A DNA stretch of 64,000 nt from Centroscyllium fabricii. Taxonomy: Eukaryota. Under the pieces are notes generated by a model, which saw only the letters and a list, made by a program, of their open reading frames with translations, searched no databases and was not told the origin of the DNA. The position numbers and the translations under genes were made by a program. Below, in pieces: positions 16,901-45,013 of the stretch. The stretch covers positions 1,984,001 through 2,048,000 of the forward strand of contig JBNRSN020000129.1 in the NCBI GenBank assembly GCA_051313645.2. The letters run 5' to 3'. Within the stretch, counting starts at the first letter, position 1. Every line of letters starts with the position of its first letter.

Positions 16901-19765
16901 TGTGAGCAGTGTGTGTATAGGTGTGAACACTGTGTGTAGGTGTGAGCAGTGTGTGTATAGGTGTGAACACTGTAGGTGTGAGCAGTGTGTGTGTATAGGT
17001 GTGAACACTGTGTGTAGGTGTGAACACTGTGTAGGTATGAGCAGTGTGTGTATAGGTGTGAACACTGTGTGTAGGTGTGAGCAGTGTGTGTATAGGTGTG
17101 AACACTGTGTGTAGGTGTGAGCAGTGTGTGTATAGGTGTGAACACTGTAGGTGTGAGCAGTGTGTGTGTATAGGTGTGAACACTGTGTAGGTGTGAGCAG
17201 TGTGTGTGCATAGGTGTGAACACTGTGTGTAGGTGTGCACAGTGTGTGTCTGTATAGGTGTGAACACTGTGTGTAGGTGTGAGCAGTGTGTGTGTATAGG
17301 TGTGGACACTGTGTGTAGTTGTGAACACTGTGTAGGTATGAGCAGTGTGTGTATAGGTGTGAACACTGTGTGTAGGTGTGAGCAGTGTGTGTATAGGTGT
17401 GAACACTGTGTGTAGGTGTGAGCAGTGTGTGTGTATAGGTGTGAACACTGTGTGTAGGTGTGAACACTGTGTAGGTATGAGCAGTATGTGTATAGGTGTG
17501 AACACTGTGTGTAGGTGTGAGCAGTGTGTGTATAGGTGTGAACACTGTGTGTAGGTGTGAGCAGTGTGTGTATAGGTGTGAACACTGTAGGTGTGAGCAG
17601 TGTGTGTGTATAGGTGTGAACACTGTGTAGGTGTGAGCAGTGTGTGTGTGTATAGGTGTGAACACTGTGTGTAGGTATGAGCAGTGTGTGTGTATAGGTG
17701 TGAACACTGTGCAGGTGTGAGCAGTGTGTGTGTATAGGTGTGAACACTGTGTGTAGGTGTGAGCCATGTGTATAGGTATGAACACTGTGTAGGTGTGAGC
17801 AGTGTGTGTGTATAGGTGTGAACACTGTGTAGGTGTGAGCAGTGTGTGTGTATAGGTGTAAACACTGTGTGTAGGTGTGAGCAGTGTGTGTATAGGTGTG
17901 AACACTAGGTGTGAGCAGTGTGTGTATAGGTGTGAACACTGTGTGTAGGTGTGAGCAGTGTGTGTATAGGTGTGAACACTGTAGGTGTGAGCATAGGTGT
18001 GAACACTGTGTAGGTGTGTATAGGTGTGAACACTGTGTGTAGGTGTGAGCAGTGTGTGTATAGGTGTGAACACTGTGTAAGTCTGAGCAGTGTGTCTATA
18101 GGTGTGAACACTGTGTGTAGGTGTGAGCAGTGTGTGTATAGGTGTGAACACTGTGTGTAGGTGTGAGCAGTGTCTTTATAGGTGTGGACACGGTGTGTAG
18201 GTGTGAGCAGAGTGTGTACAGGTGTGAACACTGTGTGTAGGTGTGAGCACTGTGTGTATAGGTGTGAACACTGTGTGTAGGTGTGAGCAGTGTGTGTATA
18301 GGTGTGAACACTGTGTGAGCAGTGTGTGTATAGGTGTGAACACTGTGTATAGGTGTGAGCAGTGTGTGTATAGGTGTGAGCACTGTGTAGGTGTGAGCAG
18401 TGTGTATAGGTGTGAACACTGTGTGTAGGTGTGAGCAGTGTGTATAGGTGTGAACAGTGTGTGTAGGTGTGAGCAGTGTGTGTGTATAGGTGTGAACACT
18501 GTGTAGGTGTAAGCAGTGTGTATAGGTCTGAACACTGTGTGTAGGTGTGAGCAGTGTGTATAGGTGTGAACACTGTGTGTATGGGGTGAGCAGTGTGTGT
18601 GTAGGTGTGAACACTGTGTAGGTGTGAGCAGTGTGTGTATAGGTGTGAACACTGTGTGTAGGTGTGAGCAGCGTGTGTATATAGGTGTGAACACTGTGTA
18701 GGTGTGAGCAGTCTGTGTGTATAGGTGTGAACACTGTGTAAGTGTGAGCAGTGTGTGTGTATAGGTGTGAACACTGTGTAGGTGCGAGCAGTGTGTGTGT
18801 ATAGGTGTGAATGCTGTGTTGGTGTGAGCAGTGTGTATAGGTCTGAACACTGTGTGTAGGTGTGAACACTGTGTAGGTATGAGCAGTGTGTGAATAGGTG
18901 TGAACACTGTGTGTAGGTGTGAGCAGTGTGTGTATAGGTGTGAACACTGTGTGTAGGTGTGAGCAGTGTGTGTATAGGTGTGAACACTGTAGGTGTGAGC
19001 AGTGTGTGTGTATAGGTGTGAACACTGTGTAGGTGTGAGCAGTGTGTGTGCATAGGTGTGAACACTGTGTGTAGGTGTGCGCAGTGTGTGTCTGTATTGG
19101 TCTGAAGACTGTGTGTAGGTGTGAGCAGTGTGTGTGTATAGGTGTGAACACTGTGTAGGTGTGAGCAGTCTGTGTGTATAGGTGTGAACACACTGTAGGT
19201 GTGAGCAGTGTCTGTGTATAGGTGTGAACACTGTGTAGGTGCGAGCAGTGTGTGTGTATAGGTGTGAACACTGTGTAGGTGTGAGCAGTATGTATAGGTG
19301 TGAACACTGTGTGTAGGTGTGAGCAGTGTGTATAGGTGTGAACAGTGTGTGTAGGTGAGCAGTGTGTGTGTATAGGTGTGAACACTGTGTAGGTGTGAGC
19401 AGTGTCTATAGGTGTGAACACTGTGTAGGTGTGAGCAGTGTGTGTAGGTGTGAGCAGTGTGTATAGGTGTGAGCAGTGTGTATAGGTGTGAACACTGTGT
19501 GTAGGTGTGAGTAGTGTGTGTATATAGGTGTGAACAGTGTGTAGGTGTGAGCAGTGTGTGTATAGGTGTGAACACTGTGTAGTTGTGAGCAGTGTGTGTG
19601 TATAGGTGTGAACACTGTGTGTAGGTGTGAGCAGTGTGTATAGGTGTGAACACTGTGTGTAGGTGTGAGCAGTGTGTGTATATAGGTGTGAACAGTGTGT
19701 AGGTGTGAGCAGTGTGTGTATATAGGTGTGAACACTGTGTAGGTGTGAGCAGTGTGTGTGTATAT
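1..19765 (+). repeat. TG-rich satellite array, left domain (~40 bp A/B heterodimer: TAGGTGTGAGCAG(TG)nTA + TAGGTGTGAACAC(TG)n)
   Basis: Continuous head-to-tail repeats from base 1 to the LINE junction; length variation comes mostly in 2-bp TG steps; characteristic variants include AGGCATGAAC, TGCGCAG and ACCGTG. Confidence 0.98.
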
Positions 19766-19767
19766 AC

Positions 19768-22395
19768 AGCTCTGAAAGATACATAAAAGCAAGTAGCAGT
19801 CAATCGATTCAGTTGCTCCTGGGCACCTTTCTAGAAAACACATACACCCACAATAAAGAAGGCGTAAACCTGGCAGTGAACAACATTAACAATATTTTTG
19901 ATAAATTGGCATCAATGTCAGACCTGAAACCCTCTTCCCAGAATAAGCCCTCCCAGAATAAGCCCAAGACGAGAAAACACGAAAAATGGTTTGATACGGA
20001 CTGTCATAACATGAGGAAAAAACTCAGAAAGATATCAAACCAAAAACATAGACAACCAACGAATGAGGAACTTCGCATTGCCTATTGTCAGGCACTAACA
20101 CAATATAAACACACACTCAGAACGAAGAAAGAACAGTATACTAAGAAAAAACTTAGTGACATTGAAGAATCTATTGATTCCAATAGTTTCTGGGAAAACT
20201 GGAACGCACTACACAAAAAGCAACAAGACGAACTGCCCATTCAAAATGGTGAAATATGGGAAAAACATTTTGTCCAATTGTACCAGAAACACACACTAAG
20301 CCCAGAGCAAGAACAATTATGTAAAAAATTGCACGACCTCGAAATGATCATAAAGGATTACCAAAACCCCCTAGACTCCTTAATCACTGAAAGAGAGCTA
20401 GCCGAAAAACTTAGGGACCTGCGACCAAGAAAAGCAGGTGGCGCAGACGGCATACTAAACGAGATGCTAAAACACACAGATGATAAAATGAAACGGGCTA
20501 TCCTACAACTCTTCAACCTGGTTCTAAGTGCCGGCTACTTCCCTGAAGTCTGGAACAAAGGACTCATAACACCCATATTTAAAAGTGGAGACAAACTTGA
20601 CCCAAACAATTACAGAGGCATCTGTGTGAGCAGCAACCTGGGGAAGGTTTTCTGTAGTATCATTAACAAAAGACTCACAAGCTTTCTCACGGAGCACAAT
20701 GTCCTGAGTAACAGCCAAATTGGATTCCTACCAAACTATAGAACCTCTGACCATATTTTCACCCTCCACACCCTAATAGACAAACACGTCCACCAAAATA
20801 AAAGCAAAATTTTTGCCTGCTTTATAGATTTCCAAAAGGCTTTCGACTCTATTTGGCACGATGGTCTATTCCTAAAACTCATCGAAGGAGGGATAGGGGG
20901 AAAAACGTATGACGTAATTAAATCAATGTACACAGGAAACAAATGTGCAGTTAAAATCGGAGATAAACAAACAAAATACTTCCCACAGAGACGTGGCGTG
21001 GCACAGGGCTCCTCTATCTCACCAACTCTTTTTAACATCTATATAAATGAACTGGCAAAAACACTGGAACAATCTACAGCACCGGGCCTCGACCTACATG
21101 ACTCCGAGGTCAAATTCCTCCTGTATGCAGATGATCTAGTCCTACTGTCACCGACAGAGGAGGGTCTACAACAGAACCTCGATCGGTTAGAGTCATTCTG
21201 CCAGAATTGGGCATTGAAAATAAACCCCAAAAAATCCAAGGTTCTTGTATTCCAGCAAAGAACCAAACATCAGGGAACCAAAACAAACTACACACTAGGA
21301 GCAACACTAATTGAACAAACTACAAACTACACATACTTAGGGTTAAAAATCAGCTCCACGGGAAATTTTCACTTGGCCGTGAACGAACTGAAAGAGAAAG
21401 CGAGAAGGGCATTCTATGCCATTAAGAAGACAATCCAAATAGACATTCCACCGGGCATCTGGATCAAAATCTTTAACTCTGTAATTGAACCAATTGCACT
21501 TTATGGCAGCGAGGTGTGGGGTCTGCTATCACACCAAGATTTTGCAAAATGGGACAAACACCCAATTGAGACCCTGCATGCTGAGTTCTGTAAGAGTATC
21601 CTTCGGACTCAGAGGAAAACCACAAACAATGCATGCAGGGCAGAGTTAGGCCAATATCCACTACTATTTAAAATCCAAAAAAGAGCAATCAAATTCTGGA
21701 AACACCTAAAACTGAGCAACCCTCACAGTTACCACTACAAAGCCCTGAAATGCCAAGAAGCGAACATAAAAAGAAGTCCCATCAACCAACTAGTCCTAGG
21801 ACTTAGCGAAGTTACTAATAACACTACTGTTAACAACCAACTTAGCGGAAAAACCACTAACACTATTGGTAACAACCAGCCCCTGGACAGTGACGCCCTA
21901 GCACTCAGAATCCGACCCAACACAATTATTACTCAACAAAAAGAAAAATACCTGAACTACTGGACAGAAACGACAAAAACCCAAATCAAACTAGATTGCT
22001 ACTTGGCCCTAAACAGACAGTACACCATGGCGGACTACCTGTCCATGGTGAAAGATAGAAAACTGAGAAAAACGCTGACAATGTACAGACTTTGCGAGCA
22101 CAGCCTAGCCATCGAAAAAGGCAGACACAGAAAGACTTGGCTGCCCAGAGAGGAAAGGCTGTGCTCCCACTGCAGTCAGGGAGTGGTGGAGACAGAGCTG
22201 CACTTCCTCACAACCTGCGAAAACTATCAGGGAATAAGGGGAAATTTCTTCCCAAAATTCGCAACAGCATGCCCTGAATTCAAAAATTTGACCGACCACC
22301 AGAAACTCCCATACCTACTAGGGGAACAGAAGGAATGTATAAAACTTGCGGCAAACTACGTCACAGCTTGCCATAAGCCGAGGGACAACCAGTGA
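19768..22395 (+). CDS. LINE ORF2 fragment: linker + reverse transcriptase + C-terminal CCHC zinc knuckle; endonuclease lost by 5' truncation
   Basis: Motifs KAGGADG, PIFKSG..DPNNYRGI, QIGF, FIDFQKAFDSI, GVAQGSSISPTLFNIYI, LLYADD (YADD at 21124-21135), YTYLG and CX2CX9HX4C (22162-22218). The ORF-track start at 19756 is a GTG in satellite DNA, not a real start. Confidence 0.93.
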   Translation, partial: SSERYIKASSSQSIQLLLGTFLENTYTHNKEGVNLAVNNINNIFDKLASMSDLKPSSQNKPSQNKPKTRKHEKWFDTDCHNMRKKLRKISNQKHRQPTNEELRIAYCQALTQYKHTLRTKKEQYTKKKLSDIEESIDSNSFWENWNALHKKQQDELPIQNGEIWEKHFVQLYQKHTLSPEQEQLCKKLHDLEMIIKDYQNPLDSLITERELAEKLRDLRPRKAGGADGILNEMLKHTDDKMKRAILQLFNLVLSAGYFPEVWNKGLITPIFKSGDKLDPNNYRGICVSSNLGKVFCSIINKRLTSFLTEHNVLSNSQIGFLPNYRTSDHIFTLHTLIDKHVHQNKSKIFACFIDFQKAFDSIWHDGLFLKLIEGGIGGKTYDVIKSMYTGNKCAVKIGDKQTKYFPQRRGVAQGSSISPTLFNIYINELAKTLEQSTAPGLDLHDSEVKFLLYADDLVLLSPTEEGLQQNLDRLESFCQNWALKINPKKSKVLVFQQRTKHQGTKTNYTLGATLIEQTTNYTYLGLKISSTGNFHLAVNELKEKARRAFYAIKKTIQIDIPPGIWIKIFNSVIEPIALYGSEVWGLLSHQDFAKWDKHPIETLHAEFCKSILRTQRKTTNNACRAELGQYPLLFKIQKRAIKFWKHLKLSNPHSYHYKALKCQEANIKRSPINQLVLGLSEVTNNTTVNNQLSGKTTNTIGNNQPLDSDALALRIRPNTIITQQKEKYLNYWTETTKTQIKLDCYLALNRQYTMADYLSMVKDRKLRKTLTMYRLCEHSLAIEKGRHRKTWLPREERLCSHCSQGVVETELHFLTTCENYQGIRGNFFPKFATACPEFKNLTDHQKLPYLLGEQKECIKLAANYVTACHKPRDNQ

Positions 22396-22611
22396 ACATT
22401 GACATTGAAGCTAGGATGAGCATACAAGCTCTATATGCGGGTATAAATGTACATGTGTACGTAACTAATGTACGGGTGTCAATAATTCTACTAATGTATT
22501 ATTCTATGTAGTACGTCTACGAATGTATTATTCTTATGTATGTTAACCTAAGTCCAGTTAAATGTTATACTTATTTTGTTTGTATTGTTATTGATGTACC
22601 ATTTTTGTAAT

Positions 22612-22652
22612 GCTTTGGCAACAACGGTTGATACCATTCATGCCAATAAAGC
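22612..22652 (+). promoter_or_regulatory. Putative LINE 3' recognition stem-loop overlapping the AATAAA signal (copy 1)
   Basis: GCTTTGGCA (22612-22620) can pair with TGCCA-ATA-AAGC (22641-22652) with a 3-nt bulge; inner GGT-TGAT-ACC hairpin. It lies just before the tail and is identical in copy 2. Confidence 0.6.
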
Positions 22653-22656
22653 TATT

Positions 22657-22680
22657 TGAAAGTGAAAGTGAAAGTGAAAG
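22657..22680 (+). repeat. (TGAAAG)4 3' terminal tandem-repeat tail of LINE copy 1
   Basis: Read directly: tgaaagtgaaagtgaaagtgaaag, with no poly(A). Confidence 0.95.
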
Positions 22681-25600
22681 TATAGGTGTGAACACTGTGT
22701 GTAGGTGTGAGCAGTGTGTGTGTATAGGTGTGAACACTGTGTGAATAGGTGTGAGCAGTGTGTGTGTATAGGTGTGAACACTGTGTGTAGGTGTGAACGC
22801 TGTGTGTAGGTGTGAGCAGTGTGTGTATAGGTGTGAACACTGTGTGTAGGTGTGAACGCTGTGTGTAGGTGTGAGCAGTGTGTGTATAGGTGTAAACACT
22901 GTGTGTAGGTGTGAGCAGTGTGTGTATAGGTGTGAACACTGTGTAGGTGTGAGCAGTGTGTGTGTATAGGTGTGAACACTGTGTGTAGGTATGAGCAGTG
23001 TGTGTGTGTATAGGTGTGAACACTGTGTAGGTGTGAGCAGTGTGTGTATAGGTGTGAACACTGTGTGTAGGTGTGAGCAGTGTGTGTGTATAGGTGTGAA
23101 CACTGTGTAGGTGTGAGCAGTGTGTGTGTATAGGTGTGAACACTGTGTAGGTGTGAGCAGTGTGTGTGTATAGGTGTGAACACTGTGTAGGTGTGAGCAG
23201 TGTGTGTGTATAGGTGTGAACACTGTGTGTAGGTGTGAGCAGTGTGTTTGTATAGGTGTGAACACTGTGTGTAGGTGTGAGCAGTGTGTGTGTATAGGTG
23301 TGAACAGTGTGTAGGTGTGAGCAGTGTGTTTGTATAGGTGTGGACACTGTGTAGGTGTGAGCAGTGTGTCTGTATAGGTGTGGGCACTGTGTAGGTGTGA
23401 GCAGTGTGTGTATAGGTGTGAACACTGTTTGTAGGTGTGAACACTGTGTGTAGGTGTGAGCAGTGTGTGTATAGGTGTGAACACTGTGTTGGTGTGAGCA
23501 GTGTGTGTATAGGTGTGAACACTGTGTGTAGATGTGAGCAGCGTGTATAGGTGTGAACACTGTGTGTAGGTGTGGGCAGTGTGTATAGGTGTGAACACTG
23601 TGTGTAGGTGTGTGTATCGGTGTGAACACTGTGTGTAGGTGTGAGCAGTGTGTGTATAGGTGTGAACACTGTGTATAGGTGTGAGCAGTGTGTGTATAGG
23701 TGTGAACACTGTGTGTAGGTGTGTGTATAGGTGTGAACACTGTGTGTAGGTGTGATCAGTGTGTGTATAGGTGTGAACACTGTGTATAGGTGTGAGCAGT
23801 GTGTTTATAGGTGTGGACACAGTGTGTAGGTGTGAGCAGTGTGTGTATAGGTGTGAACACTGTGTGTAGGTGTGAACACTGTGTGTAGGTGTGGGCAGCG
23901 TGTATAGGTGTGAACACTGTGTGTAGGTGTGGGCAGCGTGTATAGGTGTGAACACTGTGTGTAGGTGTGTGTATAGGTGTGAACACTGTGTGTAGGTGTG
24001 AGCAGTGGGTGTATAGGTGTGAACACTGTGTATAGGTTTGAGCAGTGTGTGTATAGGTGTGAACACTGTGTGTCGGTGTGTGTATAGGTGTGAACACTGT
24101 GTGTAGGTGTGATCAGTGTGTGTATAGGTGTGAACACTGTGTATAGGTGTGAGCAGTGTGTGTATAGGTGTGAACACTGTGTGTAGGTGTGAGCAGTGTG
24201 TATAGGTGTGAACACTGTGTGTAGGTGTGAGCAGTGTGTGTATAGATGTGAACACTGTGTATGTGTGAGCAGTGTGTATAGGTGTGAACACTGTGTGTAG
24301 TTGAGCAGTGTGTGTGTATAGGTGTGAACACTGTGTAGGTGCGAGCAGTGTGTGTGTATAGGTGTGAACGCTGTGTAGGTGTGAGCAGTGTGTATAGGTG
24401 TGAACACTGTGTGTAGGTGTGAGCAGTGTGTATAGGTGTGAACAGTGTGTGTAGGTGAGCAGTGTGTGTGTATAGGTGTGAACACTGTGTAGGTGTGAGC
24501 AGTGTCTATAGGTGTGAACACTGTGTAGGTGTGAGCAGTGTGTGTAGGTGTGAGCAGTGTGTATAGGTGTGAGCAGTGTGTATAGGTGTGAACACTGTGT
24601 GTAGGTGTGAGTAGTGTGTGTATATAGGTGTGAACAGTGTGTAGGTGTGAGCAGTGTGTGTGTATAGGTGTGAACACTGTGTAGGTGTGAGCAGTGTGTG
24701 TGTATAGGTGTGAACACTGTGTGTAGGTGTGAGCAGTGTTTATAGGTGTGAACACTGTGTGTAGGTGTGAGCAGTGTGTGTATATAGGTGTGAACACTGT
24801 GTGTAGGTGTGAACACTGTGTGTAGGTGTGAGCAGTGTGTGTGTATAGGTGTGAACACTGTGTGTAGGTGTGAACACTGTGTGTAGGTGTGAGCAGTGTG
24901 TGTGTATAGGTGTGAACACTGTGTGTAGGTGTGAGCAGTGTGTGTGTATAGGTGTGAACACTGTGTGAATAGGTGTGAGCAGTGTGTGTGTATAGGTGTG
25001 AACACTGTGTGTAGGTGTGAACACTGTGTGTAGGTGTGAGCAGTGTGTGTATAGGTGTGAACACTGTGTGTAGGTGTGAACAGTGTGTGTATAAGTGTGA
25101 ACACTGTGTAGGTGTGAGCAGTGTGTGTGTATAGGTGTGAACACTGTGTGTAGGTATGAGCAGTGTGTGTGTGTATAGGTGTGAACACTGTGTAGGTGTG
25201 AGCAGTGTGTGTATAGGTGTGAACACTGTGTGTAGGTGTGAGCAGTGTGTGTGTATAGGTGTGAACACTGTGTAGGTGTGAGCACTGTGTGTGTATAGGT
25301 GTGAACACTGTGTAGGTGTGAGCAGTGTGTGTGTATAGGTGTGAACACTGTGTAGGTGTGAGCAGTGTGTGTGTATAGGTGTGAACAGTGTGTAGGTGTG
25401 AGCAGTGTGTTTGTATAGGTGTGAACACTGTGTGTAGGTGTGAGCAGTGTGTGTGTATAGGTGTGAACAGTGTGTAGGTGTGAGCAGTGTGTTTGTATAG
25501 GTGTGGACACTGTGTAGGTGTGAGCAGTGTGTGTGTATAGGTGTGGACACTGTGTAGGTATGAGCAGTGTGTGTGAATAGGTGTGAGCAGTGTGTGTGTA

Positions 25601-28600
25601 TAGGTGTGAACAGTGTGTGTAGGTGTGAACACTGTGTGTAGGTGTGAGTAGTGTGTGTATAGGTGTGAACACTGTGTCGGTGTGAGCAGTGTGTGTATAG
25701 GTGTGAACACTGTGTGTAGATGTGAGCAGCGTGTATAGGTGTGAACCCTGTGTGTAGGTGTGGGCAGCGTGTATAGGTGTGAACAGTGTGTGTAGGTGTG
25801 TGTATAGGTGTGAACACTGTGTGTAGGTGTGAGCAGTGTGTGTATAGGAGTGAACACTGTGTATAGGTGTGAGCAGTGTGTGTATAGGTGTGAACACTGT
25901 GTGTAGGTGTGTGTATAGGTGTGAACACTGTGTGTAGGTGTGATCAGTGTGTGTATAGGTGTGTACACTGTGTATAGGTGTGAGCAGTGTGTGTATAGGT
26001 GTGGACACAGTGTGTAGGTGTGAGCAGTGTGTGTATAGGTGTGAACACTGTGTGTAGGTGTGAACACTGTGTGTAGGTGTGGGCAGCGTGTATATGTGTG
26101 AACACTGTGTGTAGGTTTGGGCAGCGTGTATAGGTGTGAACACTGTGTGTAGGCGTGTGTATAGGTGTGAACACTGTGTGTAGGTGTGAGCAGTGTGTGT
26201 ATAGGTGTGAACACTGTGTATAGGTGTGAGCAGTGTGTGTATAGGTGTGAATACTGTGTGTAGGTGTGTGTATAGGTGTGAACACTGTGTGTAGGTGTGA
26301 TCAGTGTGTGTATAGGTGTGAACACTGTGTGTAGGTGTGAGCAGTGTGTATTGGTGTGAACACTGTGTGTAGGTGTGAGCAGTGTGTGTATAGCTGTGAA
26401 CACTGTGTAGGTGTGAGCAGTGTATAGGTGTGAACACTGTGTGTAGGTGAGCAGTGTGTGTGTATAGGTGTGAACACTGTGTAGGTGTGAACAGTGTCTG
26501 TAGGTGTGAGCAGTGTGTGTGTATAGGTGTGAACACTGTGTGTAGTTGTGAGCAGTGTGTGTGTATAGGTGTGAACACTGTGTATAGGTGTGAACACTGT
26601 GTGTAGGTGTGAGCAGTGTGTGTATAGGTGTGAACACTGTTTAGGTGTGAGCAGTGTGTTTAGGTGTGAACACTGTGTATAGGTGTGAGCAGTGTGTTTA
26701 TAGGTGTGAACACTTTGTAGGTGTGAGCAGTGTGTGTATAAGTGTAAACACTGTGTGTAGGTGTCAGCAGTGTGTGTGTATAGGTGTGAACACTGTGTAT
26801 AGGTGTGAACACTGTGTGTAGGTGTGAGCAGTGTGTGTATAGGTGTGAACACTGCGTAGGTGTGAGCAGTGTGTGTATAGGTGTGAACACTGTGTATAGG
26901 TGTGAACACTGTGTGTAGGTGTGAGCAGTGTGTGTATAGGTGTGAACACTGTGTAGGTGTGAGCAGTGTGTGTATAGGTGTGAACAGTGTGTAGGTGTGA
27001 GCAGTGTGAACACTGTGTATAGGTGTGAGCAGTGTGTTTATAGGTGTGAACACTGTGTAGGTGTGAGCAGTGTGTTTATAGGTGTGAACACTGTGTAGGT
27101 GTGAGCAGTGTGTTTATAGGTGTGAACACTGCGTAGGTGTGAGCAGTGTGTGTATAGGTGTGAACACTGTGTATAGGTGTGAACACTGTGTGTAGGTGTG
27201 AGCAGTGTGTGTATAGGTGTGAACACTGTGTAGGTGTGAGCAGTGTGTGTATAGGTGTGAGCAGTGTGTATAGGTGTGAGCAGTGTGTATAGGTGTGAAC
27301 ACTGTGTGTAGGTGTGAGTAGTGTGTGTATATAGGTGTGAACAGTGTGTAGGTGTGAGCAGTGTGTGTGTATAGGAGTGAACACTGTGTAGGTGTGAGCA
27401 GTGTGTGTGTATAGGTGTGAACACTGTGTGTAGGTGTGAGCAGTGTGTATAGGTGTGAACACTGTGTGTAGGTGTGAGCAGTGTGTGTATATAGGTGTGA
27501 ACAGTGTGTAGGTGTGAGCAGTGTGTGTATATAGGTGTGAACACTGTGTAGGTGTGAGCAGTGTGTGTGTATAGGTGTGAACACTGTGTGTAGGTGTGAG
27601 CAGTGTGTGTGTATAGGTGTGAACACTGTGTGAATAGGTGTGAGCAGTGTGTGTGTATAGGTGTGAACACTGTGTGTAGGTGTGAACGCTGTGTGTAGGT
27701 GTGATCAGTGTGTGTATAGGTGTGAACACTGTGTATAGGTGTGAGCAGTGTGTGTATAGGTGTGAACACTGTGTGTAGGTGTGAGCAGTGTGTATTGGTG
27801 TGAACACTGTGTGTAGGTGTGAGCAGTGTGTGTATAGCTGTGAACACTGTGTAGGTGTGAGCAGTGTATAGGTGTGAACACTGTGTGTAGGTGAGCAGTG
27901 TGTGTGTATAGGTGTGAACACTGTGTAGGTGTGAGCAGTGTGTATAGGTGTGAACACTGTGTGTAGGTGTGAGCAGTGTGTATAGGTGTGAACACTGTGT
28001 GTAGGTGTGAACAGTGTCTGTAGGTGTGAGCAGTGTGTGTGTATAGGTGTGAACACTGTGTGTAGTTGTGAGCAGTGTGTGTGTATAGGTGTGAACACTG
28101 TGTATAGGTGTGAACACTGTGTGTAGGTGTGAGCAGTGTGTGTATAGGTGTGAACACTGTTTAGGTGTGAGCAGTGTGTTTAGGTGTGAACACTGTGTAT
28201 AGGTGTGAGCAGTGTGTTTATAGGTGTGAACACTTTGTAGGTGTGAGCAGTGTGTGTATAAGTGTAAACACTGTGTGTAGGTGTCAGCAGTGTGTGTGTA
28301 TAGGTGTGAACACTGTGTATAGGTGTGAACACTGTGTGTAAGTGTGAGCAGTGTGTGTATAGGTGTGAACACTGCGTAGGTGTGAGCAGTGTGTGTATAG
28401 GTGTGAACACTGTGTATAGGTGTGAACACTGTGTGTAGGTGTGAGCAGTGTGTGTATAGGTGTGAACACTGTGTAGGTGTGAGCAGTGTGTGTATAGGTG
28501 TGAACAGTGTGTAGGTGTGAGCAGTGTGAACACTGTGTATAGGTGTGAGCAGTGTGTTTATAGGTGTGAACACTGTGTAGGTGTGAGCAGTGTGTTTATA

Positions 28601-34600: not shown

Positions 34601-37318
34601 TGTGAACAGTGTGTAGGTGTGAGCAGTGTGAACACTGTGTATAGGTGTGAGCAGTGTGTTTATAGGTGTGAACACTGTGTAGGTGTGAGCAGTGTGTTTA
34701 TAGGTGTGAACACTGTGTAGGTGTGAGCAGTGTGTTTATAGGTGTGAACACTGCGTAGGTGTGAGCAGTGTTTGTATAGGTGTGAACACTGTGTATAGGT
34801 GTGAACACTGTGTGTAGGTGTGAGCAGTGTGTGTATAGGTGTGAACACTGTGTAGGTGTGAGCAGTGTGTGTATAGGTGTGAGCAGTGTGTATAGGTGTG
34901 AGCAGTGTGTATAGGTGTGAACACTGTGTGTAGGTGTGAGTAGTGTGTGTATATAGGTGTGAACAGTGTGTAGGTGTGAGCAGTGTGTGTGTATAGGTGT
35001 GAACACTGTGTAGGTGTGAGCAGTGTGTGTGTATAGGTGTGAACACTGTGTGTAGGTGTGAGCAGTGTGTATAGGTGTGAACACTGTGTGTAGGTGTGAG
35101 CAGTGTGTGTATATAGGTGTGAACAGTGTGTAGGTGTGAGCAGTGTGTGTATATAGGTGTGAACACTGTGTAGGTGTGAGCAGTGTGTGTGTATAGGTGT
35201 GAACACTGTGTGTAGGTGTGAGCAGTGTGTGTGTATAGGTGTGAACACTGTGTGAATAGGTGTGAGCAGTGTGTGTGTATAGGTGTGAACACTGTGTGTA
35301 GGTGTGAACGCTGTGTGTAGGTGTGAGCAGTGTGTGTATAGGTGTGAACACTGTGTGTAGGTGTGAGCAGTGTGTGTATAAGTGTGAACACTGTGTAGGT
35401 GTGAGCAGTGTGTGTGTATAGGTGTGAACACTGTGTGTAGGTATGAGCAGTGTGTGTGTGTATAGGTGTGAACACTGTGTAGGTGTGAGCAGTGTGTGTA
35501 TAGGTGTGAACACTGTGTGTAGGTGTGAGCAGTGTGTGTGTATAGGTGTGAACACTGTGTAGGTGTGAGCACTGTGTGTGTATAGGTGTGAACACTCTGT
35601 AGGTGTGAGCAGTGTGTGTGTATAGGTGTGAACACTGTGTAGGTGTGAGCAGTGTGTGTGTATAGGTGTGAACAGTGTGTAGGTGTGAGCAGTGTGTTTG
35701 TATAGGTGTGAACACTGTGTGTAGGTATGAGCAGTGTGTGTGTATAGGTGTGAACAGTGTGTAGGTGTGAGCAGTGTGTTTGTATAGGTGTGGACACTGT
35801 GTAGGTGTGAGCAGTGTGTGTGTATAGGTGTGGACACTGTGTAGGTGTGAGCAGTGTGTGTGAATAGGTGTGAGCAGTGTGTGTGTATAGGTGTGAACAC
35901 TGTGTGTAGGTGTGAACACTGTGTGTAGGTGTGAGCAGTGTGTGTATAGGTGTGAACACTGTGTAGGTGTGAGCAGTGTGTGTATAGGTGTGAACACTGT
36001 GTGTAGATGTGAGCAGCGTGTATAGGTGTGAACACTGTGTGTAGGTGTGGGCAGCGTGTATAGGTGTGAACAGTGTGTGTAGGTGTGTGTATAGGTGTGA
36101 ACACTGTGTGTAGGTGTGAGCAGTGTGTGTATAGGTGTGAACACTGTGTATAGGTGTGAGCAGTGTGTGGATAGGTGTGAACACTGTGTGTAGGTGTGTG
36201 TATAGGTGTGAACACTGTGTGTAGGTGTGATCAGTGTGTGTATAGGTGTGAACACTGTGTATAGGTGTGAGCAGTGTGTGTATAGGTGTGGACACAGTGT
36301 GTAGGTGTGAGCAGTGTGTGTATAGGTGTGAACACTGTGTGTAGGTGTGAACACTGTGTGTAGGTGTGGGCAGCCTGTATATGTGTGAACACTGTGTGTA
36401 GGTGTGGGCAGCGTGTATAGGTGTGAACACTGTGTGTAGGTGTGTGTATAGGTGTGAACACTGTGTGTAGGTGTGAGCAGTGTGTGTATAGGTGTGAACA
36501 CTGTGTATAGGTGTGAGCAGTGTGTGTATAGGTGTGAACACTGTGTGTAGGTGTGTGTATAGGTGTGAACACTGTGTGTAGGTGTGATCAGTGTGTGTAT
36601 AGGTGTGAACACTGTGTATAGGTGTGAGCAGTGTGTGTATAGGTGTGGACACAGTGTGTAGGTGTGAGCAGTGTGTGTATAGGTGTGAACACTGTGTGTA
36701 GGTGTGAACACTGTGTGTAGGTGTGGGCAGCGTGTATATGTGTGAACACTGTGTGTAGGTGTGGGCAGCGTGTATAGGTGTGAACACTGTGTGTAGGCGT
36801 GTGTATAGGAGTGAACACTGTGTGTAGGTGTGAGCAGTGTGTGTATAGGTGTGAACACTGTGTATAGGTGTGAGCAGTGTGTGTATACATGTGAACACTG
36901 TGTGTAGGTGTGTGTATAGGTGTGAACACTGTGTGTAGGTGTGATCAGTGTGTGTATAGGTGTGAACACTGTGTATAGGTGTGAGCAGTGTGTGTATAGG
37001 TGTGAACACTGTGTGTAGGTGTGAGCAGTGTGTATAGGTGTGAACACTGTGTGTAGGTGTGAGCAGTGTGTGTATAGCTGTGAACACTGTGTAGGTGTGA
37101 GCAGTGTATAGGTGTGAACACTGTGTGTAGGTGAGCAGTGTGTGTGTATAGGTGTGAACACTGTGTAGGTGTGAGCAGTGTGTATAGGTGTGAACACTGT
37201 GTGTAGGTGTGAGCAGTGTGTATAGGTGTGAACAATGTGTGTAGGTGTGAACAGTGTCTGTAGGTGTGAGCAGTGTGTGTGTATAGGTGTGAACACTGTG
37301 TGTAGTTGTGAGCAGTGT
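22681..37318 (+). repeat. TG-rich satellite array, middle domain
   Basis: Same dimer consensus; characteristic variants GTGTCAGCAG, GTTTATAGG, GGGCAGCG and AAGTGTAAAC. Confidence 0.98.
26470..37318 (+). repeat. Higher-order repeats: offsets 6102 and 5208, with 1520, 894, 550 and 357 bp sub-repeats
   Basis: ACAGTGTCTG at 26491/32593. ORF-track twins 26660/32762, 27038/33140 and 28558/34660 (+6102); 31023/36231 and 31380/36588 (+5208); 26660/28180 (+1520); 32212/32762 (+550); 31023/31380/31737 (+357). Confidence 0.85.
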
Positions 37319-40155
37319 ACTCTTCACCTCTTGGCACTAGCACCATAGACTATATGATTACGGATCTGGATCCTTCCTCTCTCAGAGCGTTCACAGTCAA
37401 ACCGCTAACACCTCTGTCAGATCACAGCCAAATTACTGCGTATTTCAAAAGAGCGGAAACTACCATCACAGAAACACAGCCCAGCAAGCTGCACAAAACC
37501 AAAAAACCATACAGATGGGCCCAAGACAGCTCTGAAAGATACATAAAAGCAAGTAGCAGTCAATCGATTCAATTGCTCCTGGGCACCTTTCTAGAAAACA
37601 CATACACCCACAATAAAGAAGGCGTAAACCTGGCAGTGAACAACATTAACAATATTTTTGATAAATTGGCATCAATGTCAGACCTGAAACCCTCTTCCCA
37701 GAATAAGCCCTCCCAGAATAAGCCCAAGACGAGAAAACACGAAAAATGGTTTGATACAGACTGTCATAACATGAGGAAAAAACTCAGAAATATATCAAAC
37801 CAAAAACATAGACAACCAACGAATGAGGAACTTCGCATTGCCTATTGTCAGGCACTAACACAATATAAACACACACTCAGAACGAAGAAAGAACAGTATA
37901 CTAAGAAAAAACTTAGTGACATTGAAGAATCTATTGATTCCAATAGTTTCTGGGAAAACTGGAACGCACTACACAAAAAGCAACAAGACGAACTGCCCAT
38001 TCAAAATGGTGAAATATGGGAAAAACATTTTGTCCAACTGTACCAGAAACACACACTAAGCCCAGAGCAAGAACAATTATGTAAAAAATTGCACGACCTC
38101 GAAATGATCATTAAGGATTACCAAAACCCCCTAGACTCCTTAATCACTGAAAGAGAGCTAGCCGAAAAACTTAGGGACCTGCGACCAAGAAAAGCAGGTG
38201 GCGCAGACGGCATACTAAACGAGATGCTAAAACACACAGATGATAAAATGAAACGGGCTATCCTACAACTCTTCAACCTGGTTCTGAGTGCCGGTTACTT
38301 CCCTGAAGTCTGGAACAAAGGACTCATAACACCCATATTTAAAAGTGGAGACAAACTTGACCCAAACAATTACAGAGGCATCTGTGTGAGCAGCAACCTG
38401 GGGAAGGTTTTCTGTAGTATCATTAACAAAAGACTCACAAGCTTTCTCACGGAGCACAATGTCCTGAGTAACAGCCAAATTGGATTCCTACCAAACTATA
38501 GAACCTCTGACCATATTTTCACCCTCCACACCCTAATAGACAAACACGTCCACCAAAATAAAAGCAAAATTTTTGCCTGCTTTATAGATTTCCAAAAGGC
38601 TTTCGACTCTATTTGGCACGATGGTCTATTCCTAAAACTCATCGAAGGAGGGATAGGGGGAAAAACGTATGACGTAATTAAATCAATGTACACAGGAAAC
38701 AAATGTGCAGTTAAAATCGGAGATAAACAAACAAAATACTTCCCACAGGGACGTGGCGTGGCACAGGGCTCCTCTATCTCACCAACTCTTTTTAACATCT
38801 ATATAAATGAACTGGCAAAAACACTGGAACAATCTACAGCACCGGGCCTCGACCTACATGACTCCGAGGTCAAATTCCTCCTGTATGCAGATGATCTAGT
38901 CCTACTGTCACCGACAGAGGAGGGCCTACAACAGAACCTCGATCGGTTAGAGTCATTCTGCCAGAATTGGGCATTGAAAATAAACCCCAAAAAATCCAAG
39001 GTTCTTGTATTCCAGCAAAGAACCAAACATCAGGGAACCAAAACAAACTACACACTAGGAGCAACACTAATTGAACAAACTACAAACTACACATACTTAG
39101 GGTTAAAAATCAGCTCCACGGGAAATTTTCACTTGGCCGTGAACGAACTGAAAGAGAAAGCGAGAAGGGCATTCTATGCCATTAAGAAGACAATCCAAAT
39201 AGACATTCCACCGGGCATTTGGATCAAAATCTTTAACTCTGTAATTGAACCAATTGCACTTTATGGCAGCGAGGTGTGGGGTCTGCTATCACACCAAGAT
39301 TTTGCAAAATGGGACAAACACCCAATTGAGACCCTGCATGCTGAGTTCTGTAAGAGTATCCTTCGGACTCAGAGGAAAACCACAAACAATGCATGCAGGG
39401 CAGAGTTAGGCCAATATCCACTACTATTTAAAATCCAAAAAAGAGCAATCAAATTCTGGAAACACCTAAAACTGAGCAACCCTCACAGTTACCACTACAA
39501 AGCCCTGAAATGCCAAGAAGCTAACATAAAAAGAAGTCCCATCAACCAACTAGTCCTAGGACTTAGCGAAGTTACTAATAACACTACTGTTAACAACCAA
39601 CTTAGCGGAAAAACCACTAACACTATTGGTAACAACCAGCCCCTGGACAGTGACGCCCTAGCACTCAGAATCCGACCCAACACAATTATTACTCAACAAA
39701 AAGAAAAATACCTGAACTACTGGACAGAAACGACAAAAACCCAAATCAAACTAGATTGCTACTTGGCCCTAAACAGACAGTACACCATGGCGGACTACCT
39801 GTCCATGGTGAAAGATAGAAAACTGAGAAAAACGCTGACAATGTACAGACTTTGCGAGCACAGCCTAGCCATCGAAAAAGGCAGACACAGAAAGACTTGG
39901 CTGCCCAGAGAGGAAAGGCTGTGCTCCCACTGCAGTCAGGGAGTGGTGGAGACAGAGCTGCACTTCCTCACAACCTGCGAAAACTATCAGGGAATAAGGG
40001 GAAATTTCTTCCCAAAATTCGCAACAGCATGCCCTGAATTCAAAAATCTGACCGACCACCAGAAACTCCCATACCTACTAGGGGAACAGAAGGAATGTAT
40101 AAAACTTGCGGCAAACTACGTCACAGCTTGCCATAAGCAGAGGGACAACCAGTGA
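37318..40155 (+). CDS. LINE ORF2 fragment: C-terminal end of APE endonuclease + reverse transcriptase + CCHC zinc knuckle
   Basis: APE C-terminal motifs STIDYM (IDY at 37345-37353) and PLSDH (SDH at 37417-37425); YADD at 38884-38895; CX2CX9HX4C near the C-terminus; no stops or frameshifts. The ORF-track start at 37315 is a satellite GTG. Confidence 0.94.
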   Translation, partial: YSSPLGTSTIDYMITDLDPSSLRAFTVKPLTPLSDHSQITAYFKRAETTITETQPSKLHKTKKPYRWAQDSSERYIKASSSQSIQLLLGTFLENTYTHNKEGVNLAVNNINNIFDKLASMSDLKPSSQNKPSQNKPKTRKHEKWFDTDCHNMRKKLRNISNQKHRQPTNEELRIAYCQALTQYKHTLRTKKEQYTKKKLSDIEESIDSNSFWENWNALHKKQQDELPIQNGEIWEKHFVQLYQKHTLSPEQEQLCKKLHDLEMIIKDYQNPLDSLITERELAEKLRDLRPRKAGGADGILNEMLKHTDDKMKRAILQLFNLVLSAGYFPEVWNKGLITPIFKSGDKLDPNNYRGICVSSNLGKVFCSIINKRLTSFLTEHNVLSNSQIGFLPNYRTSDHIFTLHTLIDKHVHQNKSKIFACFIDFQKAFDSIWHDGLFLKLIEGGIGGKTYDVIKSMYTGNKCAVKIGDKQTKYFPQGRGVAQGSSISPTLFNIYINELAKTLEQSTAPGLDLHDSEVKFLLYADDLVLLSPTEEGLQQNLDRLESFCQNWALKINPKKSKVLVFQQRTKHQGTKTNYTLGATLIEQTTNYTYLGLKISSTGNFHLAVNELKEKARRAFYAIKKTIQIDIPPGIWIKIFNSVIEPIALYGSEVWGLLSHQDFAKWDKHPIETLHAEFCKSILRTQRKTTNNACRAELGQYPLLFKIQKRAIKFWKHLKLSNPHSYHYKALKCQEANIKRSPINQLVLGLSEVTNNTTVNNQLSGKTTNTIGNNQPLDSDALALRIRPNTIITQQKEKYLNYWTETTKTQIKLDCYLALNRQYTMADYLSMVKDRKLRKTLTMYRLCEHSLAIEKGRHRKTWLPREERLCSHCSQGVVETELHFLTTCENYQGIRGNFFPKFATACPEFKNLTDHQKLPYLLGEQKECIKLAANYVTACHKQRDNQ

Positions 40156-40432
40156 ACATTGACATTGAAGCTAAGATGAGCATACAAGCTCTATATGCGG
40201 GTATAAACGTACATATGTACGTAACTAATGTACGGGTGTCAATAATTCTACTAATGTATTATTCTATGTAGTACGTCTACGAATGTATTATTCTTATGTA
40301 TGTTAACCTAAGTCCAGTTAAATGTTATACTTATTTTGTTTGTATTGTTATTGATGTACCATTTTTGTAATGCTTTGGCAACAACGGTTGATACCATTCA
40401 TGCCAATAAAGCTATTTGAAAGTGAAAGTGAA
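37319..40432 (+). mobile_element. 5'-truncated non-LTR retrotransposon (LINE), copy 2, same family as copy 1
   Basis: About 207 bp longer at the 5' end than copy 1; 16 substitutions relative to copy 1 over ~2.9 kb; AATAAA at 40405-40410; tail TGAAAG TGAAAG TGAA. No target-site duplication relative to the empty paralogous site at 32110/32111. Confidence 0.95.
40372..40432 (+). promoter_or_regulatory. LINE copy 2 putative 3' stem-loop, AATAAA and short (TGAAAG)n tail
   Basis: Same GCTTTGGCA / TGCCAATAAAGC pairing as copy 1 (40372-40412); tail at 40417-40432. Confidence 0.6.
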
Positions 40433-43400
40433 GTGTGTATAGGTGTGAACACTGTGTATAGGTGTGAACACTGTGTGTAGGTGTGAGCAGTGTGTGTATA
40501 GGTGTGAACACTGTTTAGGTGTGAGCAGTGTGTTTAGGTGTGAACACTGTGTATAGGTGTGAGCAGTGTGTTTATAGGTGTGAACACTGTGTAGGTGTGA
40601 GCAGTGTGTGTATAAGTGTAAACACTGTGTGTAGGTGTCAGCAGTGTGTGTGTATAGGTGTGAACACTGTGTATAGGTGTGAACACTGTGTGTAGGTGTG
40701 AGCAGTGTGTGTATAGGTGTGAACACTGCGTAGGTGTGAGCAGTGTGTGTATAGGTGTGAACACTGTGTATAGGTGTGAACACTGTGTGTAGGTGTGAGC
40801 AGTGTGTGTATAGGTGTGAACACTGTGTAGGTGTGAGCAGTGTGTGTATAGGTGTGAACAGTGTGTAGGTGTGAGCAGTGTGAACACTGTGTATAGGTGT
40901 GAGCAGTGTGTTTATAGGTGTGAACACTGTGTAGGTGTGAGCAGTGTGTTTATAGGTGTGAACACTGTGTAGGTGTGAGCAGTGTGTTTATAGGTGTGAA
41001 CACTGCGTAGGTGTGAGCAGTGTGTGTATAGGTGTGAACACTGTGTATAGGTGTGAACACTGTGTGTAGGTGTGAGCAGTGTGTGTATAGGTGTGAACAC
41101 TGTGTAGGTGTGAGCAGTGTGTGTATAGGTGTGAGCAGTGTGTATAGGTGTGAGCAGTGTGTATAGGTGTGAACACTGTGTGTAGGTGTGAGTAGTGTGT
41201 GTATATAGGTGTGAACAGTGTGTAGGTGTGAGCAGTGTGTGTGTATAGGTGTGAACACTGTGTAGGTGTGAGCAGTGTGTGTGTATAGGTGTGAACACTG
41301 TGTGTAGGTGTGAGCAGTGTGTATAGGTGTGAACACTGTGTGTAGGTGTGAGCAGTGTGTGTATATAGGTGTGAACAGTGTGTAGGTGTGAGCAGTGTGT
41401 GTATATAGGTGTGAACACTGTGTAGGTGTGAGCAGTGTGTGTGTATAGGTGTGAACACTGTGTGTAGGTGTGAGCAGTGTGTGTGTATAGATGTGAACAC
41501 TGTGTGAATAGGTGTGAGCAGTGTGTGTGTATAGGTGTGAACACTGTGTGTAGGTGTGAACGCTGTGTGTAGGTGTGAGCAGTGTGTGTATAGGTGTGAA
41601 CACTGTGTGTAGGTGTGAGCAGTGTGTGTATAGGTGTGAACACTGTGTAGGTGTGAGCAGTGTGTGTGTATAGGTGTGAACACTGTGTGTAGGTATGAGC
41701 AGTGTGTGTGTGTATAGGTGTGAACACTGTGTAGGTGTGAGCAGTGTGTGTATAGGTGTGAACACTGTGTGTAGGTGTGAGCAGTGTGTGTGTATAGGTG
41801 TGAACACTGTGTAGGTGTGAGCACTGTGTGTGTATAGGTGTGAACACTGTGTAGGTGTGAGCAGTGTGTGTGTATAGGTGTGAACACTGTGTAGGTGTGA
41901 GCAGTGTGTGTGTATAGGTGTGAACAGTGTGTAGGTGTGAGCAGTGTGTTTGTATAGGTGTGAACACTGTGTGTAGGTGTGAGCAGTGTGTGTGTATAGG
42001 TGTGAACAGTGTGTAGGTGTGAGCAGTGTGTTTGTATAGGTGTGGACACTGTGTAGGTGTGAGCAGTGTGTGTGTATAGGTGTGGACACTGTGTAGGTGT
42101 GAGCAGTGTGTGTGAATAGGTGTGAGCAGTGTGTGTGTATAGGTGTGAACACTGTGTGTAGGTGTGAACACTGTGTGTAGGTGTGAGCAGTGTGTGTATA
42201 GGTGTGAACACTGTGTAGGTGTGAGCAGTGTGTGTATAGGTGTGAACACTGTGTGTAGATGTGAGCAGCGTGTATAGGTGTGAACACTGTGTGTAGGTGT
42301 GGGCAGCGTGTATAGGTGTGAACAGTGTGTGTAGGTGTGTGTATAGGTGTGAACACTGTGTGTAGGTGTGAGCAGTGTGTGTATAGGTGTGAACACTGTG
42401 TATAGGTGTGAGCAGTGTGTGTATAGGTGTGAACACTGTGTGTAGGTGTGTGTATAGGTGTGAACACTGTGTGTAGGTGTGATCAGTGTGTGTATAGGTG
42501 TGAACACTGTGTATAGGTGTGAGCAGTGTGTGTATAGGTGTGGACACAGTGTGTAGGTGTGAGCAGTGTGTGTATAGGTGTGAACACTGTGTGTAGGTGT
42601 GAACACTGTGTGTAGGTGTGGGCAGCCTGTATATGTGTGAACACTGTGTGTAGGTGTGGGCAGCGTGTATAGGTGTGAACACTGTGTGTAGGTGTGTGTA
42701 TAGGTGTGAACACTGTGTGTAGGTGTGAGCAGTGTGTGTATAGGTGTGAACACTGTGTATAGGTGTGAGCAGTGTGTGTATAGGTGTGAACACTGTGTGT
42801 AGGTGTGTGTATAGGTGTGAACACTGTGTGTAGGTGTGATCAGTGTGTGTATAGGTGTGAACACTGTGTATAGGTGTGAGCAGTGTGTGTATAGGTGTGA
42901 ACACTGTGTGTAGGTGTGAGCAGTGTGTATAGGTGTGAACACTGTGTGTAGGTGTGAGCAGTGTGTGTATAGCTGTGAACACTGTGTAGGTGTGAGCAGT
43001 GTATAGGTGTGAACACTGTGTGTAGGTGAGCAGTGTGTGTTTATAGGTGTGAACACTGTGTAGGTGTGAGCAGTGTGTATATGTGTGAACACTGTGTGTA
43101 GGTGTGAGCAGTGTGTATAGGTGTGAACACTGTGTGTAGGTGTGAACAGTGTCTGTAGGTGTGAGCAGTGTGTGTATAGGTGTGAACACTGTGTGTAGTT
43201 GTGAGCAGTGTGTGTGTATAGGTGTGAACACTGTGTATAGGTGTGAACACTGTGTGTAGGTGTGAGCAGTGTGTGTATAGGTGTGAACACTGTGTAGGTG
43301 TGTGCAGTGTGTTTAGGTGTGAACACTGTGTATAGGTGTGAGCAGTGTGTTTATAGGTGTGAACACTGTGTAGGTGTGAGCAGTGTGTGTATAAGTGTAA

Positions 43401-44204
43401 ACACTGTGTGTAGGTGTCAGCAGTGTGTGTGTATAGGTGTGAACACTGTGTATAGGTGTGAACACTGTGTGTAGGTGTGAGCAGTGTGTGTATAGGTGTG
43501 AACACTGCGTAGGTGTGAGCAGTGTGTGTATAGGTGTGAACACTGTGTATAGGTGTGAACACTGTGTGTAGGTGTGAGCAGTGTGTGTATAGGTGTGAAC
43601 AGTGTGTAGGTGTGAGCAGTGTGAACACTGTGTATAGGTGTGAGCAGTGTGTTTATAGGTGTGAACACTGTGTAGGTGTGAGCAGTGTCTTTATAGGTGT
43701 GAACACTGTGTAGGTGTGAGCAGTGTGTTTATAGGTGTGAACACTGCGTAGATGTGAGCAGTGTGTGTATAGGTGTGAACACTGCGTAGATGTGAGCAGT
43801 GTGTGTATAGGTGTGAACACTGTGTATAGGTGTGAACACTGTGTGTAGGTGTGAGCAGTGTGTGTATAGGTGTGAACACTGTGTAGGTGTGAGCAGTGTG
43901 TGTATAGGTGTGAACAGTGTGTAGGTGTGAGCAGTGTGAACACTGTGTATAGGTGTGAGCAGTGTGTTTATAGGTGTGAACACTGTGTAGGTGTGAGCAG
44001 TGTGTTTATAGGTGTGAACACTGTGTAGGTGTGAGCAGTGTGTGTATAGGTGTAAACACTGTGTGTAGGTGTGATCAGTGTGTGTCTTATGTGTGAACAC
44101 TGTGTGTAGGTGTGAACACTGTGTATAGGTGTGAACACTGTGTAGGTGTGAACACTGTGTATAGGTGTGAACACTGTGTAGGTGTGAACACTGTGTGTGT
44201 GAGC
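40433..44204 (+). repeat. TG-rich satellite array, continuation of the middle domain, decaying at its right edge
   Basis: Resumes the same higher-order phase as 32111 onward; the last ~120 bp are runs of B subunits only, ending ...ctgtgtgtgtgagc. Confidence 0.97.
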
Positions 44205-45013
44205 TGACCTGGAAGGGCCCAATTGTAGCAGTGATCTTAAACTGGTCCATTTTAATGCAAGTCTTCAATTCAAAGATTCAAATATTGATTGAAAATGAGA
44301 CTTTGTATTTTAAATGAATGAATCTTGCTTTAACGTTTGCTCTGTATTTGAAAATAGTTAACTTTGTCTGTGAAGCTCTGCGAGTGCTCTGCGTCCTTGT
44401 TGAGGTTTGTCGGTAGCCTCGAACTGTTAGTCAGTCCTGGGTCAGTCAGTGAAGATACTGACGTTAGACTGGAATGGAAGAGTCACAATTAAAACAGCAA
44501 TTTTATTGGAAACATTACAAACTGCAGAATTACAGCGAGACTGTGTGGGGAAACCTTTCTGCACTGACCATGTTAATCAGGCCGAGGAAGGGATTGTCTT
44601 CCCATCCTGGAATCGCACGTCTACCTTGCACTGCTCCAGGTTATACACATCACGCCAAACACCAAGCGATGTTTCCTCGCCTCCGCTTCAACCCCAGCCA
44701 TCCTCCGAATCTCTGCTTTTCACCTAAAACCCTTTGTGAAGGGGGGAATCATCCCGCGTCTGTCTGTGCTGGTGAACGGTATCAGGGTACATAGAAAACA
44801 CGGGGGAAACCCAGACAGCTCCCTTGGTAAGTCTGGTGCACACAGTGGGCGGGGATGTCAGAAAGTTCACGTATCCAAAAGGAAGGTGGAGCGCATAGCC
44901 TCATTTCTTATCAAAACTTATAAGAACAGCATATTAAAATAAGCACAAATTGCAATGTAACTGTAAAATACCAAAAACTGTGAGTAATCCTAGGTCAGGT
45001 ACGATGAAAATAT
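44205..45013. other. Non-repetitive island of unknown function
   Basis: Complex sequence with no visible similarity to the satellite or the LINE; its short ORFs show no motif I recognise. Confidence 0.85.

Follow-up and report, generated by a model that had tools for sequence, protein, structure and literature searches.

The 64,000-nucleotide stretch analysed here (the window; Centroscyllium fabricii, contig JBNRSN020000129.1, positions 1,984,001 to 2,048,000, forward strand) lies in a GT-rich satellite array interrupted by copies of a long interspersed nuclear element (LINE). These are independent, 5'-truncated copies of a young and dispersed RTEX-like LINE, and their enrichment along the G-rich strand is probably explained by a loose preference of the apurinic/apyrimidinic endonuclease-type (APE) enzyme that the element encodes. 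The family as a whole is dispersed and has a loose, strand-asymmetric preference for many G-skewed tandem repeats. The original prediction had taken two co-oriented copies in the window as a candidate satellite- or (GT)n-targeting LINE; the feature is real, but it was over-read as specific targeting. With a weak motif one already expects co-oriented inserts in a skewed satellite, and taken alone such inserts are no evidence of targeting.

Insertion sites of the dispersed family

A genome search with the 3' end of the element, which the original prediction had proposed, returned 1,534 exact matches to the terminal 26 nt in the 7.21 Gb genome, and the flanks display both strand bias and repeat enrichment. 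With a shorter anchor (total matches at least 1,534), six distinct loci, represented by 13 overlapping matches, have (GT)6 within 22 nt after the tail, and no locus has (AC)6 there; copies abutting (GT)6 amount to under 1%. No (GT)6 occurs in a 200-kb background from C1, so no fold-enrichment can be given for pure (GT)n.

We fetched 115 dispersed copies, 100 of which have a defined 5' junction; the other 15 were excluded from the 5' counts because the 5' end was unreached, the alignment was broken by indels or the copy was a tandem self-insertion, and two of the 115 were excluded from the 3' counts. The 5' flank carries no tail overlap, and in its last 10 nt G exceeds C in 76 copies and C exceeds G in 13 (n=100). 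GT lies within the last 8 nt of this flank in 69 of 100 copies, compared with 34% of the 200-kb background. Target-site duplications are short, mostly 4–7 bp, with sites that read G(T/A/G)(G/A)T, and duplications of at least 5 nt were called in 55 of 100 copies compared with 18.5% of 600 mismatched pairs.

Of the first 100 copies on C1, 23 are flanked by tandem repeats, compared with only 25 of 820 background tiles (3%), an excess of about eightfold. The repeat units entered vary from 2 to 67 bp, and 22 of the 23 were entered along the G-rich strand; both tallies hold clustered members, and nominal p-values therefore overstate independence. A matching repeat lies upstream, on the 5' side, in 21 of these 23 copies (the exceptions being one copy with an unreached 5' end and one with a diverged flank), which indicates that the repeat predates the insertion and rules out, for this family, a repeat grown from the tail afterwards. 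Such growth could have occurred in two copies with a TTGAA tail (L179 and L188). Copies outside tandem repeats keep the local word, with G over C by 48 to 11 in the last 10 nt, and their region from -200 to -20 is skewed by 46 to 20. Across the family the regional skew is 74:37, compared with no skew (28:26, n=54) in a control of CR1 3' ends from the fetched DNA, from which two loci with tandem CR1 ends were left out (86 reduced to 54).

Sister families extend this picture. For the TTGAA-tailed sister 3' end there are 7,167 exact matches, which form same-strand clusters, and TTGAA-tailed sisters that are 91–95% identical also occupy GAGT and GTGT sites. In two degenerate GT/GA arrays, picked from the list of TTGAA clusters, all related 3' ends (14 of 14 and 16 of 16, from families with several tails) run along the G-rich strand; the ends outside the picking list are co-oriented in 15 of 15 cases (p=6e-5, with two that look like one duplicated event). 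The GT/GA arrays at C1:80.25-80.29 Mb and 83.27-83.32 Mb (L211-L218) hold several RTEX-like families that differ in their tails and are all co-oriented, and they make a stronger case than the window.

Dispersal, independence, the junction word, the strand bias and the repeat enrichment are direct observations. A mechanism consistent with them would begin with an APE endonuclease whose nicks fall, by loose preference, on the C-rich strand where it faces G(T/A/G)(G/A)T words. The first nick would fall on the AC-rich strand, as had been suggested from the window, and this agrees with the 22 of 23 repeats entered along the G-rich strand and with the six (GT)6 loci against no (AC)6 locus. The RNA tail may then prime reverse transcription by a brief pairing of a few bases with the freed end, as has been proposed for CR1, L2 and RTE elements (PMC6007223, PMC4245944). 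A second nick, usually 4–7 nt downstream, would generate the short duplication, and one at or before the first nick would generate a blunt join (copy 2 of the window) or a deletion (copy 3). Repeats and the array may tolerate inserted copies and so allow them to persist. In an array whose words are dense on one strand, hits would arrive in one orientation and mostly in the GT run.

It is unlikely that nicks are placed with little preference and that only ends able to pair with the tail are extended, such that tail sequence sets the target. In 73 of 115 copies GT comes next after the last A run, and the commonest start, GTGA (23 copies), is the tail's own continuation. Copies with a TTGAA tail likewise resume at ..TGA; among the first 30, 17 lie in tandem repeats, mostly GA-rich (15 are G-skewed). 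Tail and target overlap in CR1, L2 and RTE elements, and tail-dependent site choice has been proposed for RTE (PMC6007223). However, the starts GAGT (13) and GGGT (9), together 22 of the 115 copies, have just one base in common with the tail, and G-richness reaches upstream of the duplication. Moreover, families with TTGAA, TTGTGAA and TAGTGAA tails occupy the same arrays in the same orientation. These one-base overlaps and the sharing of arrays among differently tailed families speak for the enzyme rather than the tail alone, as do the GAGT and GTGT sites of the TTGAA-tailed sisters.

Passive accumulation or structural access appears distinctly unlikely as the whole explanation. Insertion would then be sequence-neutral, and copies would collect through relaxed selection, low recombination or exposure of single-stranded DNA (R-loops, stalled forks). 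Densities do differ greatly among arrays and exceed what the motif predicts, other elements (a CR1-type LINE, a Gypsy-type element and another LINE piece) also reside in the window's array, and the non-tandem copies do lie in skewed regions. Passive accumulation has also been invoked for Waldo-A/B near CA repeats in Drosophila (PMC3812793). Yet relaxed selection alone would leave both orientations, whereas 22:1 and 15:0 were observed, and it would not account for the local word that non-tandem copies retain. The regional skew (74/99) is itself compatible with the 66% obtained by simulation from the local matrix alone (p=0.09). Passive accumulation or structural access probably adds residual density to that produced by a loose endonuclease preference.

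Two further kinds of site were seen among the copies. Seven (L054, L017, L078, L096, L097, L105 and L106) lie, as judged by eye, apparently inside CR1 coding sequence on the sense strand, which is G/A-rich. In head-to-tail doublets (L003, L070/L071, C1:287323089 and C1:80256369) the tail of one copy runs into a second copy internally, which suggests either template switching or insertion into sister copies.

The window's array and its three insertions

The window is a modest case of a genome-wide habit. Its satellite is part of one array of ~112 kb (C324, ~1.94–2.05 Mb), inside which all 1,262 forward genome matches of a 22-nt monomer word are found. Two LINE copies lie on the GT strand within the GT-run motif, as the original prediction described, and a third was found on the same strand outside the window (Table 1). 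A genome search for the LINE 3' end joined to the satellite word returned exactly three places, all in C324 and all on the same strand.

Table 1. Position and character of the features in and beside the window.
Feature	Position	Strand	Remarks
LINE copy 1, 5'-truncated, 2.9 kb	19766..22679	+	3' untranslated region, (TGAAAG)n tail
Copy 1 target-site duplication GTATA, 5' copy	19760..19764	+	Extra T at 19765
Copy 1 target-site duplication GTATA, 3' copy	22680..22684	+	GT doubles as the tail unit's next letters
LINE copy 2, 5'-truncated, 3.1 kb	37319..40432	+	3' untranslated region, (TGAAAG)n tail
LINE copy 3, 2.1 kb	G000:C324:1975657-1977782	+	6 kb left of the window
Host array	1..64000	+	~40-bp GT-rich monomer, G-skew ~+0.65
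812-bp unique segment and 24-mer minisatellite	44202..46180	+	Inside the array; no transposon identified

Copy 1 retains an open remnant of open reading frame (ORF) 2, from the reverse transcriptase (RT) to a C-terminal Cys/His motif, with a stop at 22395. Compared with empty homologous sites elsewhere in the array, it sits in GAGCA(GT)5ATAGG at the end of the GT run. This position had been read correctly, but the duplication given as TATA is GTATA, read without the G that is shared with the tail. Copy 2 extends from the end of the APE domain through the RT to the C-terminal motif in an open frame (stop at 40155), and the empty homologous monomers confirm that it lies after GT 2 of 5, with a blunt junction and no duplication. 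Over the 2,898 bases that these two copies share there are 16 differences (0.55%), and their 5' ends and tail lengths are also different. The 3' end of copy 3 lies in the GT run as in the other two, and ~13 bp of its target are deleted.

The three array copies were aligned with 27 dispersed copies over their last 2,050 bases. Copy 1 has three diagnostic alleles in common with a sub-lineage of 10 of the 27, copy 3 has three other alleles in common with 3 of the 27, and copy 2 has five private alleles and none of those diagnostic of copies 1 and 3. No derived allele is common to two array copies in this alignment. The array copies are thus three events out of three sub-lineages, and the independence proposed earlier for copies 1 and 2 is borne out by these different alleles.

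We scored the array with three matrices derived only from dispersed copies, of 55, 33 and 73 sites. Tandem-flanked copies contribute to the 55-site matrix but were kept out of the 33- and 73-site ones. The 73-site matrix uses 5' flanks alone and the other two are duplication-aligned; the 55-site matrix left out 45 of the 100 copies, for which the duplication call was outside 4–10 nt or off the junction. The + strand receives 99%, 98% and 92% of their weight in the array (55-, 33- and 73-site matrices, respectively), at scores 15-, 6.6- and 2.9-fold those of the background. The duplication-aligned matrices give the GT run 58% and 36% of the weight, compared with the 17% of array positions occupied by the GT run after GAGCA. 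With the local motif preference, then, the orientation is expected and the phase is favoured. The preference covers only part of the local density, and array-level hot spots come on top of it; the excess is in part a matter of window selection and probably in part one of array-level heterogeneity.

Several observations weigh against a loose endonuclease preference as a sufficient account. The array should hold 0.03–0.14 copies by the matrices and 0.15–0.18 by the tandem-repeat average, but three are observed, such that a 17- to 100-fold excess remains. The fullest matrix is partly circular, as it contains tandem-flanked copies and as 40% of mismatched pairs call a duplication of at least 4 nt, and genomic copies have already been filtered by selection. 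The CR1 control gave 34:11 for G over C at +6 to +16, which is unexplained. On C1, a stretch of 100 kb surrounding a 17-mer array of weaker skew holds 15 related ends on the + strand and 7 on the - strand, so the orientation rule is loose there; four family copies of differing length in that stretch share one GTGTTAT phase. No TTGAA-tailed copies were found in the window's array by similarity search, though they fill other GT-rich arrays. Finally, distant TTGAA families (~72% identity) are often found in GA-rich repeats, and tail pairing explains this as well as a change of enzyme would.

Strict specificity for the satellite or for (GT)n, with the array as a safe harbour, is highly improbable even though three independent, co-oriented copies end in one GT run. 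Uniform insertion would place 0.019 copies in 91 kb of pure satellite (P of at least three copies = 1.2e-6, uncorrected for the choice of window), and the density of the family in the array is ~126 times its genome mean. However, only three of the 1,534 exact 3' ends run into the satellite motif, (GT)6 follows the tail at only the six loci given above, and 77 of 100 copies on C1 (the first 100 in coordinate order) lack a tandem repeat on the 3' side. These counts rule out strict targeting of either kind, the strongest form of the reading made from the window, and they are an outcome that the original prediction had itself named as refuting specificity. In addition, the array copies group with different dispersed sub-lineages, and there is no array-specific branch. 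The chance that a single insertion was multiplied by array duplication and later altered is practically negligible, since 5' ends, tails, junction types, flanks and, decisively, sub-lineage alleles all differ, although the array does have long higher-order repeats and a duplicated boundary.

The array is not uniform apart from these LINEs, as had been assumed, but also contains the unique segment and minisatellite listed in Table 1. The 812-bp segment matches the right boundary of the array (G000:C324:2051952 onward, L044) at 99.75%, which suggests an unequal exchange or duplication of ~24 kb. The earlier statement that no other transposon is visible does not extend to the rest of the array. 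Left of the window, a Gypsy-type element of 5.6 kb (G000:C324:1968041-1973658, L035/L034) has identical 544-bp long terminal repeats and is coded on the minus strand. The array also holds a 2.2-kb CR1-type LINE with an open frame of 716 codons (G000:C324:1953810-1956052) and, left of the window, a LINE-like piece of 1.1 kb (G000:C324:1941248-1942356). At G000:C324:2097161-2099566 (L048/L049), ~63 tandem copies of a 38-bp unit consist of a CR1 3' end and tail, and we read this as a minisatellite born from a LINE terminus.

Identity of the element

The family is young and has intact copies. Full-length copies measure ~6.4 kb, and in 10 of 14 long copies ORF2 is uninterrupted over 1,215–1,217 codons from stop to stop; it matches Exo_endo_phos (APE, E 6e-11) and RVT_1 (RT, E 1e-40). 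ORF1 encodes 648 aa, with a coiled-coil-like stretch at ~207–281 (judged by eye) and an SGNH-like esterase at ~392–545, where the motifs DSN, GTND and DQVH occur at 397, 445 and 524; the esterase matches are weak and both fall below the curated cut-off (Lipase_GDSL_2 in Pfam, E 0.0049; PAF-AH in PDB, E 0.0034). Fishes, a shark and frogs have named homologues of ~50–64% identity, which bear no clade labels among the 120 of 311 matches listed, and the RT matches in PDB are only to L1, R2 and group II RTs. At their 5' end, full-length copies (L060:460-900) carry a GC-rich tandem of ~50-bp units in variable number, which is possibly a monomer-type promoter.

The RTEX clade (RTEX-1/2/3_NV) resembles the family in having two ORFs, a long ORF1, an ORF2 with APE and RT, and a short tandem tail (PMC3905857). 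The ORF1 of RTEX-3_NV has a coiled coil at 148–261 and an esterase at 371–538, whereas in ORF1 of the CR1/ZfL2-1 type the esterase begins at 68–252 (PMC3905857 Table S1). The late positions in RTEX-3_NV are close to those in our ORF1, with which the weak matches are consistent. In contrast, L2/CR1 elements of the ZfL2-1 type have a short ORF1 with an early esterase, and the ZfL2-1 chain 4c1b matches the family ORF1 at E 0.077 only. The RTEX-like label of the original prediction is thus supported by ORF architecture, which is not phylogenetic support.

Comparison with known systems

No description of target preference in RTEX elements was found in the literature searched, a scope that left Repbase Reports and subscription papers outside, and the accessible parts of PMC5753468, PMC11203168, PMC12477816 and PMC2790886 contain nothing on targets. 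This absence is weak evidence of novelty. It is quite possible, though we would not yet call it probable, that vertebrate RTEX-like LINEs share an undescribed, loose and strand-asymmetric rule, namely nicking of G-skewed DNA on its C-rich strand, by which at least a quarter of their copies end up in micro- and minisatellites with many different units. Such elements would be intermediate between random and site-specific APE-type LINEs, and changes of tail or enzyme would shift sister families between GT-rich and GA-rich targets. The family bears on the open question of how APE-type LINEs come to have strict site specificity. A young family with intact copies, a loose but measurable preference and differently tailed sisters offers a system in which endonuclease choice and tail priming can be separated.

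Vertebrate L2, CR1 and RTE elements are known for short duplications, blunt joins, target deletions and overlap of tail and target (cited in PMC4245944, PMC6007223). The 4–7-bp peak of the family resembles the 3–5-bp duplications of L2 and CR1. RTE proper peaks at 10–12 bp, and the RTE-related signature described has duplications of 7–15 bp that start at a T ~10 nt downstream of a T stretch (PMC6007223). The family does not carry this signature, as its sites are G-initial and C-poor, its duplications are shorter and its strand bias is strong.

Parallels are also found among LINEs of simple repeats. Waldo and Mino belong to the R1 clade and Kibi and Koshi to the Tx1 clade. Like the family, Waldo and Mino are APE-type LINEs in AC/GT-type repeats. 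WaldoAg1/2 and WaldoFs1 (ACAY), MinoAg1 (AC), Kibi (TC) and Koshi (TTC) are sequence-specific, and endonuclease cleavage is believed to be the basis (PMC3812793). A fixed orientation to the repeat would be expected of such elements, and the family shows it, with 22 of 23 along the G-rich strand and six (GT) loci against no (AC) locus. However, a specific element would also be expected to have most of its copies in one repeat unit, whereas the family has less than 1% of its copies at (GT)6 and enters many unrelated units. Drosophila Waldo-A/B likewise have a loose CA/GT association (PMC3812793). That association has been ascribed to passive accumulation; in the family described here, the junction word and the 22:1 bias argue for an active component.

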